Positions 19,931-22,487 of a DNA stretch of 64,000 nt are shown piece after piece. The DNA lies in assembly GCF_053078305.1 (NCBI RefSeq), contig NZ_CP166879.1, one strand, 5' to 3'. Both the position numbers and the translations under genes were made by a program. Numbering within the stretch: position 1 is the first letter of the stretch; every line of letters begins with the position of its first letter. The notes under the pieces were generated by a model that saw only the letters and a program-made list of their open reading frames with translations, made no database searches and had not been told where the DNA came from.

Positions 19931-20614
19931 ATGAAACGCTCCGCTATAAACGACATTCTCGGCCATACACGGCAATTCTTTTCGCAACATGACGTACATC
20001 TGCCGCCCTTTGCCAGTTTCTCGCCTGCTCAATGGCAGCAGCTCGACACCGCCGCGTGGGAGGAGGTTTTTGATCTTAAACTCGGCTGGGATGTTACCGC
20101 TTTTGGTCGCAACAACTTTGCAGCACACGGGCTGACGCTGTTTACCCTACGTAACGGCTCAGCAAAAGGAATGCCGTATGTGAAATGTTACGCCGAGAAG
20201 ATCATGCATGTGCGCGATGCGCAGGTCACGCCAATGCATTTTCACTGGCGTAAGCGTGAGGACATTATCAATCGCGGCGGCGGTAATTTAATTGTTGAAC
20301 TGTGGAATGCCGATAGTAACGAGCAAACGGCTGATAGTGACATTACGGTGGTGATAGACGGCTGCCGCCAGAAACATACTGCAGGCACTCAGTTGCGCCT
20401 GTCTCCCGGCGAAAGTATCTGCCTGCCGCCCGGCCTGTATCACAGCTTTTGGGCGGAAACCGGCTTTGGCGATGTTCTGGTTGGCGAAGTCTCTTCTGTC
20501 AATGACGACGACCACGATAACCACTTTTTACAGCCACTGGACCGCTACAACCTGATTGACGAAGACGAACCTGCACAGTTGGTATTGTGTAACGAATACC
20601 GCCAGTTCCGCTGA
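19931..20614 (+). CDS. Cupin-fold sugar isomerase (D-lyxose/D-mannose isomerase-like)
   Basis: 227 aa; cupin motif 1 HFHWRKRE and motif 2 PPGLYHSF; resembles the YdaE/EcSI D-lyxose isomerase family as I recall it. Confidence 0.75.
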   Translation: MKRSAINDILGHTRQFFSQHDVHLPPFASFSPAQWQQLDTAAWEEVFDLKLGWDVTAFGRNNFAAHGLTLFTLRNGSAKGMPYVKCYAEKIMHVRDAQVTPMHFHWRKREDIINRGGGNLIVELWNADSNEQTADSDITVVIDGCRQKHTAGTQLRLSPGESICLPPGLYHSFWAETGFGDVLVGEVSSVNDDDHDNHFLQPLDRYNLIDEDEPAQLVLCNEYRQFR

Positions 20615-20628
20615 ATAAGGATAACGTT

Positions 20629-21489
20629 ATGCCATTGATTTCTCTCGCTGAAGGGCTGGCACATGCCCGCGAACATCACTATTCGTTAGGTGCGTTTAAT
20701 GTGCTGGACTCGCACTTTTTACGCGCCTTGTTTGCTGCTGCCAGACAAGAACGTTCGCCCTTTATTATCAACATTGCCGAAGTACATTTTAAATATATCT
20801 CGCTGGATTCCCTGGTCGAGACAGTGAAATTTGAAGCGGCGCGTCATGCCATTCCGGTGGTGTTAAATCTCGATCACGGACTGCATTTTGAATCGGTGGT
20901 GCAAGCGTTGCGGCTGGGATTCAGCTCGGTAATGTTTGATGGCTCCACGCTGGGGTATGAAGAAAATGTCCGCCAGACGCGGGAAGTGGTGAAAATGTGC
21001 CATGCCGTTGGCGTATCGGTAGAAGCTGAACTGGGCGCGGTGGGTGGCGACGAAGGCGGTGCACTCTATGGTCATGCCGATGAATCCCTGTTTACCGATC
21101 CGCAACTGGCGCGTGATTTTGTCGACCGTACCGGCATTGACGCGTTGGCCGTGGCGATTGGCAATGCACACGGCAAATATCGCGGCGAACCGAAACTCGA
21201 TTTCCCGCGCCTCGACGCTATCCGCCAGCAGGCTGCTATCCCGCTGGTATTACACGGCGGCTCAGGGATTAGCGATGCCGATTTCCGCCGCGCCATCGAA
21301 CTGGGTATCCACAAAATCAATTTCTACACTGGCATGTCGCAAGCGGCGCTGGCTGCCGTTGAGGCCCGAATGGCGCACCGTCAGCCGATGTATGACGAGT
21401 TTGCCGAGTTACTGCTGGCAGTGGAAGCCGCCATCAGCGATACGGTTGCACAACAGATGCGTATTTTTGGCAGTGCGGGGCAGGCATGA
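20629..21489 (+). CDS. Class II ketose-bisphosphate aldolase (FbaA/GatY/KbaY family)
   Basis: 286 aa; LNLDHG, VLHGGSGI and ELGIHKINFYT motifs typical of TIM-barrel class II aldolases. Confidence 0.85.
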   Translation: MPLISLAEGLAHAREHHYSLGAFNVLDSHFLRALFAAARQERSPFIINIAEVHFKYISLDSLVETVKFEAARHAIPVVLNLDHGLHFESVVQALRLGFSSVMFDGSTLGYEENVRQTREVVKMCHAVGVSVEAELGAVGGDEGGALYGHADESLFTDPQLARDFVDRTGIDALAVAIGNAHGKYRGEPKLDFPRLDAIRQQAAIPLVLHGGSGISDADFRRAIELGIHKINFYTGMSQAALAAVEARMAHRQPMYDEFAELLLAVEAAISDTVAQQMRIFGSAGQA

Positions 21490-22487
21490 TGGAGCGTAAA
21501 GGGATTATCGCCGCAGGCAATATGTTGGTTGACCACGTCCATCAGATTATCCAGTGGCCAGAGCGCGGCTGGCTGGCGGAGATCACCCACAGCGAACGCT
21601 CCACCGGCGGTGCGCCGCTTAACGTCCTGCTGACGCTGGCGAAAATGCGCACCGGGCTGCCGTTACAGGCGGTTGGGCTAATCGGTCAGGACAGCGACGG
21701 CGATTACATCATGGCGATGCTTGAGCAATATCACGTCAATCGTCAGCATGTGCAGCGCACTACCTTTGCCCCGACGTCGATGTCGCAGGTGATGACAGAC
21801 CCAAGCGGGCAGCGGACGTTTTTCCATTCGCCGGGTGCAAACAGACTTTTGGATCTTCCGGCGTTCGATCAGCTCGATAACACCATGAAGATTTTCCATC
21901 TCGGCTATTTACTGTTGCTCGACAGCCTGGATATGCCGGACGATGTTTACGGCACCCGTAGCGCACGCCTGCTGGCGCAAATGCGTGATACTGGCTTTGA
22001 AACCTCACTCGACCTGGTCTCCCGTAAGGGCGATCCGCGTTATCAGCCGCTGGTGCTGCCCGCGTTGCGCCATCTGGATTATCTGGTAATTAACGAACTG
22101 GAGGCCGGGGAGTTTAGCGGGCTGGAAATTCGGTTACCCAACGGCGAACCGCATATCGCGCATATTGCTGCCGCCGCGCGTGAACTGTTAGATGCGGGCG
22201 TGCGCCAGCGGGTGGTGATCCACTGCCCGGAAGGGGCGTGGGGAGAGACCCCAGAACAGGGCGGCGTGTGGATCCCTTCGCAAAAGTTAGAACAACGGGA
22301 AATTATCGGCAGCGTCGGCGCGGGCGATGCATTTTGTGCCGGATTTTTATATGGCTGCCATGAACGCTGGACGCTTACCGAGAGCATCAAACTGGCACAC
22401 GCCTGCGCGCGGGCAAGCCTGTTATGCGCCAATGCCATCGACGGGGCGAAAACGCTGGAAGAGCTGCAAACAGAAATGTCGGATTAA
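21486..22487 (+). CDS. PfkB-family carbohydrate kinase
   Basis: 333 aa; GG dipeptide (STGGAP) and C-terminal PfkB signature GSVGAGDAFCAGF; start overlaps aldolase stop (ATGA). Confidence 0.8.
   Translation: MMERKGIIAAGNMLVDHVHQIIQWPERGWLAEITHSERSTGGAPLNVLLTLAKMRTGLPLQAVGLIGQDSDGDYIMAMLEQYHVNRQHVQRTTFAPTSMSQVMTDPSGQRTFFHSPGANRLLDLPAFDQLDNTMKIFHLGYLLLLDSLDMPDDVYGTRSARLLAQMRDTGFETSLDLVSRKGDPRYQPLVLPALRHLDYLVINELEAGEFSGLEIRLPNGEPHIAHIAAAARELLDAGVRQRVVIHCPEGAWGETPEQGGVWIPSQKLEQREIIGSVGAGDAFCAGFLYGCHERWTLTESIKLAHACARASLLCANAIDGAKTLEELQTEMSD

Follow-up and report, generated by a model that had tools for sequence, protein, structure and literature searches.

We propose, with a probability of roughly 0.55, that three adjacent enzyme genes at positions 19931-22487 of a 64,000-nucleotide stretch of the Escherichia coli chromosome (NCBI RefSeq assembly GCF_053078305.1, contig NZ_CP166879.1; the whole stretch is called the window below) encode an uncharacterized pathway of the ketose-1-phosphate class, located in an already catalogued genomic island. 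In this pathway an aldose would be isomerized to a ketose, the ketose phosphorylated to a ketose 1-phosphate, and the phosphate cleaved to dihydroxyacetone phosphate (DHAP) and an aldehyde. The three open reading frames (ORFs) are all on the + strand and encode a cupin isomerase (19931-20614, 227 aa), a class II aldolase of the FbaA/GatY type (20629-21489, 286 aa) and a PfkB-family sugar kinase (21486-22487, 333 aa). RefSeq gives the same three genes in the E. coli record L001 (99.8-100% identity), and they match exactly the coordinates at which an earlier note on the window, made without database searches, had recognized this combination of enzymes. The same note counted a single PfkB kinase and uptake by an ATP-binding cassette (ABC) transporter rather than a phosphotransferase system (PTS), and the gene content of the island agrees on both points: neither a PTS gene nor a second kinase was found in it.

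The aldolase (PF01116) belongs to subfamily NF005284 with 578 bits (cutoff 406), matches class II aldolase structures with E values of 1e-50 to 2e-62, and is about 36-40% identical to its nearest solved relatives, which are fructose 1,6-bisphosphate (FBP) aldolases, GatY/KbaY-type enzymes, YdjI and SqiA. Residue roles given in the SqiA structure paper (PMC10665668) were transferred through an alignment of 83 subfamily sequences that also contained GatY, KbaY, YdjI, two Firmicute FBP aldolases and SqiA. The mapping is valid because SqiA numbering in the alignment reproduces every residue that the paper names (D82, H83, E134, H180, G181, H208-S211, N230, D232, T233, Y254, L256, A257 and L260). 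The zinc ligands H83, H181, H209 and E134, the catalytic D82 and the mobile-loop E142 are invariant in the 83 subfamily sequences and align with H83, H180, H208, E134, D82 and E142 of SqiA. The pocket for the C1 phosphate of DHAP is likewise invariant (G182, G210, G211, S212 and T234) and aligns with G181, G209, G210, S211 and T233, which bind the 1-phosphate in SqiA (PMC10665668). The two sequence motifs noted earlier, NLDHG at residues 80-84 and PLVLHGGSG at residues 205-213, were both confirmed.

The ligands of the distal phosphate, on the other hand, are replaced. The 6-phosphate in the Helicobacter pylori FBP aldolase is held by Ser49, Arg259 and the partner-subunit Arg280' (PMC10665668); in the island enzyme Ser49 becomes A50 and Arg259 becomes S237, both invariant across the subfamily, and Arg280 becomes F258, a position occupied by F, L or Y. 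GatY, KbaY and the Staphylococcus aureus FBP aldolase carry T, T and S at the first of these positions, K, K and Q at the second, and R in all three enzymes at the third (the DPR arginine). Arg259 and Arg280 were mapped by way of the paper's equivalence of Arg280 with SqiA Ala257, and Ser49 by the numbering offset together with the Ser/Thr column. The arginine position is occupied by Phe in YdjI, annotated by RefSeq as a ketose-1-phosphate aldolase, and by Ala in SqiA, a sulfofructose-1-phosphate aldolase that does not cleave FBP (PMC10665668). Residues N48, I49, A50, V52, H53, N80, K183, F232, Y233, G235, M236 and S237, near the distal pocket, are invariant in this subfamily only, and NF005284 is therefore a distinct functional group.

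An alignment-based comparison of active sites with GatY, KbaY and FbaA (36-40% identity) thus gives a divided result, as the fold, the zinc ligands, the catalytic Asp and Glu and the DHAP pocket are the same, while the island enzyme lacks the Ser/Thr at position 50, the Arg/Lys at N+6 and the DPR arginine, and the island lacks GatZ/KbaZ and a PTS. The earlier note had allowed that the enzyme might turn out to be a standard FBP or tagatose-bisphosphate aldolase, and the distal-phosphate ligands of such an enzyme were not seen in the alignment. Nor does the island offer a context that would supply a bisphosphate, having one kinase and neither a PTS nor GatZ/KbaZ. With an intact DHAP site and a remodeled distal pocket, the protein is probably a ketose-1-phosphate aldolase, and the name "ketose 1,6-bisphosphate aldolase" that RefSeq and NCBIfam give to NF005284 is probably wrong, because all three distal-phosphate ligands are replaced. 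A role as tagatose-6-phosphate 4-epimerase was also considered for this protein and dropped; the DHAP-phosphate pocket is intact, and that epimerase belongs to the GatZ/KbaZ family (PF08013), not to PF01116.

The aldolase and the kinase travel together. A conservation scan with one genome per species returned 80 loci in which the aldolase is 75-99% identical to that of the window, nearly all of them from Enterobacterales (including Citrobacter, Enterobacter, Kosakonia, Lelliottia, Buttiauxella, Atlantibacter, Pantoea, Erwinia, Serratia and Yersinia pestis) plus Tolumonas, and the islands are syntenic. The isomerase, aldolase and kinase genes are contiguous and in the same order in 79/80 loci, after the ABC genes and before the regulator; the single exception (L084) is a truncated contig with no kinase match. 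Median identity across the loci is 95.5% for the binding protein of the ABC transporter, the best conserved protein of the island, 87% for the aldolase and 83% for the kinase. Tolumonas-type islands have an additional xylulokinase gene between the binding-protein and isomerase genes (TIGR01312, 577 bits, cutoff 380; 4994-6439 in L005, 7850-9292 in L088 and 1766-3205 in L089). Among the 80 loci this gene is present in the two from Tolumonas and in none of the other 78; three metagenomic loci (L005-L007) share the Tolumonas architecture, xylulokinase included.

We sampled ten representatives of the kinase family for their gene contexts, eight of which are on contigs long enough to show neighbors. 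The kinase lies inside an island with the Lyx isomerase in L005-L007. A metagenomic locus (L091, 2678-9038) has an NF005284 aldolase (68% identical, 503 bits) followed by an overlapping kinase gene, with no Lyx isomerase; its companions are an ABC transporter, a xylulokinase-like FGGY kinase, a fructokinase-like PfkB kinase, a DeoR regulator, a GMC oxidoreductase and a cupin protein that resembles phosphomannose isomerase (PMI) and has no Pfam match. This locus appears to hold a second, unstudied pathway built on the same aldolase-kinase module. In L096 the pair stands alone amid unrelated genes, again without an isomerase, and its aldolase is 58% identical to that of the island. The aldolases of L091 and L096 share the signature residues of the subfamily. 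The neighbors in L009/L010 and L093/L094 were uninformative, L092 is a 1.6-kb contig, and L099 has unannotated neighbors only. Across the 80 scan loci, the aldolase and kinase genes were never apart wherever a kinase was matched. The pair thus forms a portable, conserved module of two genes, an argument for the kinase as the source of the aldolase's substrate.

The kinase itself matches the Pfam PfkB family (PF00294) with an E value of 1e-35, and its family comprises 321 clusters at E < 1e-30. The GG (41-42), NxxE (203-206) and GAGD (278-281, with the catalytic Asp) motifs are invariant or nearly so in 72 family members. An AlphaFold2 model built from the 72-sequence alignment reached a predicted local distance difference test score (pLDDT) of 96, compared with 37 for a single-sequence run, and superimposes on ribokinases in the PDB with a template modeling (TM) score of 0.83 by Foldseek. 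Judged by its motifs and model, the protein is a PfkB enzyme competent for catalysis, and the possibility raised earlier that it is catalytically dead finds no support in the sequence, where all three motifs are intact. Of the characterized PfkB equivalogs (fructokinase, 1-phosphofructokinase, tagatose kinase, IolC, ribokinase and KdgK) none passes its NCBIfam cutoff; the 14 NCBIfam kinase matches are all far below theirs, the top one being the IolC domain (73 bits, cutoff 300). The N-terminal half is fructokinase-like (NF006957, E 5e-12), and the best sequence-based PDB match is the sulfofructose kinase YihV (E 2e-10). The invariant Arg110 (in RTFFH) was examined as a sign of an anionic substrate and rejected, given that YdjH has the same ERTF pattern; fructokinases carry an equivalent GERSF motif.

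The isomerase bears on the identity of the substrate. It matches NF051472 (cupin; Lyx_isomer, PF07385) with 438 bits (cutoff 350) and the structures PDB 3KMH/3MPB over residues 1-227, its full length, with an E value of 4e-160. As judged from these matches it is essentially the crystallized Z5688, also called EcSI, a Mn-dependent D-lyxose/D-mannose isomerase. The earlier note held that substrate and pathway are not deducible from sequence alone, which is too strong, because this enzyme has been solved and assayed (PDB 3KMH; PMC6746899). The ratio of kcat/Km for D-mannose over D-lyxose is 0.75 for the O157 enzyme, a value exceeded in the table only by that of T. oceani, 0.86 (PMC6746899, Table 3).

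In the proposed pathway, the binding protein and ABC importer would bring in a free aldose of lyxo or manno configuration, with a 6-deoxy sugar or another analogue also possible. The cupin isomerase would convert it to the 2-ketose, D-xylulose or D-fructose, a reaction shown for D-lyxose and D-mannose. The PfkB kinase would then phosphorylate C1 of the ketose, and the class II aldolase would cleave the resulting ketose 1-monophosphate, giving DHAP and an aldehyde that bears no phosphate. That aldehyde would be glycolaldehyde from xylulose 1-phosphate (X1P), D-glyceraldehyde from fructose 1-phosphate, or lactaldehyde from a 6-deoxy ketose, and would be processed by host enzymes. A xylulose-1-kinase and an X1P aldolase are enough to let an E. 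coli ΔxylB strain grow on xylose, with AldA and YqhD taking the glycolaldehyde (PMC4559361); since an E. coli host can live on this chemistry, no aldehyde enzyme need be encoded in the island. In the kinase-regulator gaps of 14 related loci we found only fimbrial, siderophore-receptor, insertion sequence and unrelated ORFs, with no aldehyde dehydrogenase, reductase or mutarotase. The Tolumonas xylulokinase suggests that D-xylulose goes there to xylulose 5-phosphate in the classical way, and the kinase-aldolase pair may then act on a hexose, or on a 6-deoxy analogue for which phosphorylation at C6 is impossible. Many of the residues specific to the aldolase subfamily are hydrophobic, which fits the 6-deoxy idea without proving it.

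Several observations weigh against a ketose-1-phosphate pathway. The loss of the distal ligands, the retained DHAP site and the conservation of the module favor this route, which the earlier note had offered as one example of atypical specificity, but the position that the kinase phosphorylates is a part that we infer, given that the characterized equivalogs score below cutoff and that structure says "ribokinase family" only: ribokinases, YdjH and YihV all match by Foldseek at a TM score of about 0.8 and 17-23% identity, which is uninformative on the hydroxyl that is phosphorylated. The kinase family is not tied to the aldolase, and the phosphorylation position therefore cannot be read from family membership. 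A gene resembling the Lyx isomerase stands with a kinase beside a GH38 mannosidase in L095, a short contig with no aldolase visible, and the kinases of L008 and L097 adjoin genes resembling mannitol dehydrogenase, also with no aldolase visible. These three kinases are 39-43% identical to the island kinase, and in their settings a 6-phosphate product would be more sensible. The true xylulokinase of Tolumonas and the two further kinases of L091 raise the possibility that phosphorylation at the far end occurs as well or instead. In the aldolase, the invariant basic residues H53, K55 and K183, with R251 (82/83), could form another anion site. If the intermediate is fructose 1-phosphate, the host FruK would make the aldolase redundant.

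The first alternative, which the earlier note raised in the form of a housekeeping kinase and which we consider unlikely although more probable than the others, is a bisphosphate route in which a host or neighboring kinase (XylB, Mak or a fructokinase) acts at C5 or C6, the PfkB kinase adds the 1-phosphate and the aldolase cleaves a bisphosphate. PfkB, FruK and LacC all add a 1-phosphate, the NCBIfam and RefSeq label of the aldolase names just such a substrate, H53, K55 and R251 of the subfamily could bind an anion, and a second kinase is at hand in Tolumonas (the xylulokinase) and in L091 (the FGGY kinase and the fructokinase-like PfkB beside the pair). The replacement of the three distal-phosphate ligands across the subfamily (by A, by S, and by F, L or Y) speaks against this route, as does the gene content of the 80 loci, in which the extra kinase is confined to the two from Tolumonas and missing from the other complete islands. 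Cleavage of FBP would also duplicate the host FbaA, and xylulose 1,5-bisphosphate would yield phosphoglycolaldehyde, for which we know of no catabolic use.

Somewhat less probable still is a reversed order of steps, in which an imported ketose, possibly of seven to nine carbons (C7-C9) as with YdjH/YdjI, is phosphorylated on C1 and cleaved to DHAP and an aldose, and the isomerase salvages the aldose, turning D-lyxose or D-mannose into D-xylulose or D-fructose for a xylulokinase or fructokinase. This arrangement gives every enzyme a role, including the Tolumonas xylulokinase and the xylulokinase-like, fructokinase-like and PMI-like genes of L091, and it accommodates the aldolase-kinase pair that lacks an isomerase in L096. 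It also has a precedent in YdjI, an FbaA-type aldolase that frees a C5 aldose derivative from an octulose 1-phosphate. It is, however, pure inference; the binding protein is RbsB-like, a type usually for pentoses and hexoses, and no abundant natural octulose or nonulose of the required configuration is known to us.

The next alternative, that the kinase is an ordinary fructokinase or xylulokinase whose 6- or 5-phosphate enters central metabolism, with the aldolase serving another substrate or being dispensable, we regard as improbable. It draws on the relatives of 39-43% identity that lie, with no aldolase, beside a Lyx-isomerase-like gene and a mannosidase or beside polyol-dehydrogenase-like genes, and on the fructokinase-like N-terminal half of the enzyme. 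It has difficulty with the translational coupling of aldolase and kinase through an ATGA overlap, with a pair that is unseparated in the scan loci with a kinase match and still paired in two foreign contexts, and with an aldolase under strong purifying selection (median identity 87% versus 83% for the kinase). The least credible alternative by far, a hybrid sulfo-Embden-Meyerhof-Parnas trio acting on sulforhamnose or sulfofructose, can point to YihV as the top sequence-based PDB match of the kinase (E 2e-10) and to the match of the aldolase with the SqiA structures 8Q57 and 8Q58 (E 1e-54 to 1e-56; both enzymes lack the partner-subunit arginine), but the aldolase resembles SqiA (39% identity) no more than it does true FBP aldolases (40%), SqiA Asp232 is a Tyr in it, and neither the island nor the gaps of the 80 loci yielded a sulfoquinovosidase, a sulfonate exporter, or a reductase or dehydrogenase for sulfolactaldehyde.

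The ketose-1-phosphate pathway that we prefer is not a novelty in its component folds, and the combination is less unusual than was first thought. In the myo-inositol pathway of Bacillus subtilis the cupin isomerase IolB yields a keto sugar acid, IolC phosphorylates the carbon beside the keto group, and IolJ cleaves the product to DHAP and an unphosphorylated aldehyde. These are the same three folds as in the island with the same logic, and IolC is the best, though weak, NCBIfam match of the island kinase. The two systems are not orthologous, as IolC scores 73 bits against a cutoff of 300, the island cupin is Lyx_isomer (PF07385) rather than a member of the IolB family, and the island substrates are neutral aldoses whereas those of the Iol enzymes are deoxy-uronates.

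The folds of the kinase and aldolase also recur together, acting on ketose 1-monophosphates, in YdjH/YdjI and in SqiA with a sulfofructose kinase. YdjH and YdjI of E. coli K-12, named by RefSeq L-glycero-L-galacto-octuluronate kinase and -1-phosphate aldolase, are an adjacent PfkB kinase and PF01116 aldolase; YdjI has the Phe in place of the distal arginine, and YdjH ranks among the best structural matches of the island kinase. Identity is 39% between the aldolases and 24% between the kinases, and the ydj cluster has dehydrogenases and major facilitator superfamily transporters where the island has a cupin isomerase and an ABC importer. SqiA is likewise FbaA-type, cleaves a ketose 1-phosphate, rejects FBP and lacks the partner-subunit arginine, but it holds the sulfonate with the backbone amides of residues 51-52, whereas residues 50-53 of the island aldolase are an invariant AEVH and residue 233 is Tyr, not Asp. 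Accessory genes of sulfoglycolysis are absent from the island. At 24-39% identity, the sequences indicate that the trio is orthologous to no Iol, Ydj or SqiA system. We know of no natural bacterial version of the X1P pathway. A synthetic one, in which human Khk-C and aldolase B were introduced into E. coli, has the same chemistry if the island substrate is D-lyxose, but it was assembled by engineering with mammalian enzymes, and its aldolase B is of class I (PMC4559361).

The three genes are part of an insert of eight genes (14050-23209) that is flanked on one side by yjdP, where the phn operon ends, and on the other by yjcS, and consists of a sensor gene on the - strand, a six-gene operon on the + strand and a convergent regulator gene. 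The locus is the O-island OI-167 of enterohemorrhagic E. coli (EHEC), genes Z5684-Z5692. The sensor, RbfS (Z5692; 14050-16311, -), is a hybrid sensor histidine kinase/response regulator (RefSeq coding sequence; PMC9860305). The operon opens with the ATP-binding protein of a sugar ABC transporter of CUT2 type (16425-17945, +), which has two ATPase domains and matches the NCBIfam AraG, XylG and RbsA models with 524-557 bits, under their cutoffs. It is followed by an RbsC-like permease (17942-18916, +; 271 bits by NCBIfam), the start of which overlaps the ATPase stop codon, and an RbsB-like periplasmic sugar-binding protein (18935-19876, +; 150 bits against the NCBIfam RbsB model), a near-identical ortholog of PDB 4RWE (E 3.7e-167). 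A literature search with the code 4RWE returned unrelated papers only. Downstream of the isomerase, aldolase and kinase genes, the OmpR/TorR-type response regulator RbfR (Z5684; 22484-23191, -; RefSeq, NCBIfam and PMC9860305) overlaps the kinase stop, and its ORF might reach 23209. Packing is tight throughout, as seen in the ATPase/permease overlap and in the ATGA shared by the aldolase stop and kinase start.

The 54 bp that separate the binding-protein gene from the isomerase gene contain a hairpin (19886-19906) with a 6-bp GC-rich stem, CCGGGC...GCCCGG, which may stabilize the mRNA or act as an attenuating element and so determine how much binding protein is made relative to the enzymes. A scan for promoters and terminators inside the operon gave nothing exceeding shuffled expectation. 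Elsewhere in the window, fdhF (30713-32860) is read as two ORFs with a TGA at 31130-31132 between them, the known selenocysteine codon 140 of formate dehydrogenase H, with no frameshift.

The TorS/TorR-like two-component system whose genes flank the operon probably drives its expression. An element, TATGACAAATATGAACGGCTTCTGACATTTTGCATTTAC, precedes the ABC ATPase gene at 16339-16378 (+) and is composed of two direct half-sites, ATGACAAAT and CTGACATTT, that lie 20 bp from each other. When 17 upstream regions, ranging from E. coli to Pantoea, Serratia and Tolumonas, are aligned, the element hardly varies whereas its flanks diverge. It probably serves the island's response regulator as an operator, a candidate through which the operon would be controlled. 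Its resemblance to the published RbfR site in the ler promoter is loose. The sensor matches the NCBIfam TorS, VirA-like and LuxQ models, all under cutoff, and the binding protein matches TorT (E 6e-11). In the TorS, VirA and LuxQ systems the ligand reaches the kinase by way of a periplasmic binding protein. It is plausible by analogy that the sugar is sensed through the binding protein and not directly by the sensor, because the sensor is TorS/VirA/LuxQ-like and the binding protein TorT-like.

A 2022 PNAS paper named the regulators RbfS and RbfR, reported that they respond to riboflavin and activate ler, and stated that rbfSR is restricted to EHEC O157:H7 and O145:H28 and to O55:H7; its main text is silent on the genes between rbfS and rbfR (PMC9860305). 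Sensing through the binding protein would bear on the claim that the sensor detects riboflavin. We found the three-gene block as a single chromosomal copy in 410/5,426 complete E. coli genomes (about 8%), of which most are O157:H7 (99.6% identity) and others are O145, O55:H7, O78 and isolates from poultry, pigs and humans. Z5688 is almost silent under most conditions in an EHEC transcriptome, with its top read count in LB (lysogeny broth) at 15 °C (PMC4048457). Literature searches on the kinase or aldolase genes found nothing, and those on Z5685-Z5691 and OI-167 returned only RbfSR and enzyme-application papers. On balance the island is best seen as a self-contained, horizontally mobile sugar-scavenging unit, a view that we hold with slightly more confidence than doubt.

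The island OI-167, the isomerase and RbfS/RbfR were already known. No new kind of biochemistry is involved. The NF005284 subfamily, which has members in about 8% of the complete E. coli genomes and in each of the 80 species of the scan, is probably misnamed in RefSeq. If D-lyxose is indeed used by way of X1P, nature already has the pathway that engineers built, and a bacterial kinase and aldolase for it become available. More tentatively, the operon may encode an undescribed natural ketose-1-phosphate pathway, for D-lyxose through D-xylulose 1-phosphate or for a 6-deoxy sugar of lyxo or manno configuration such as D-rhamnose, with that same sugar being the signal of RbfS/RbfR, beside or in place of riboflavin, through the TorT-like binding protein; this combination as a whole we consider doubtful. 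The regulator pair whose genes enclose the operon is reported to switch on the type III secretion genes of O157:H7 in the gut, and knowing the sugar of the operon would clarify what RbfS and RbfR respond to.

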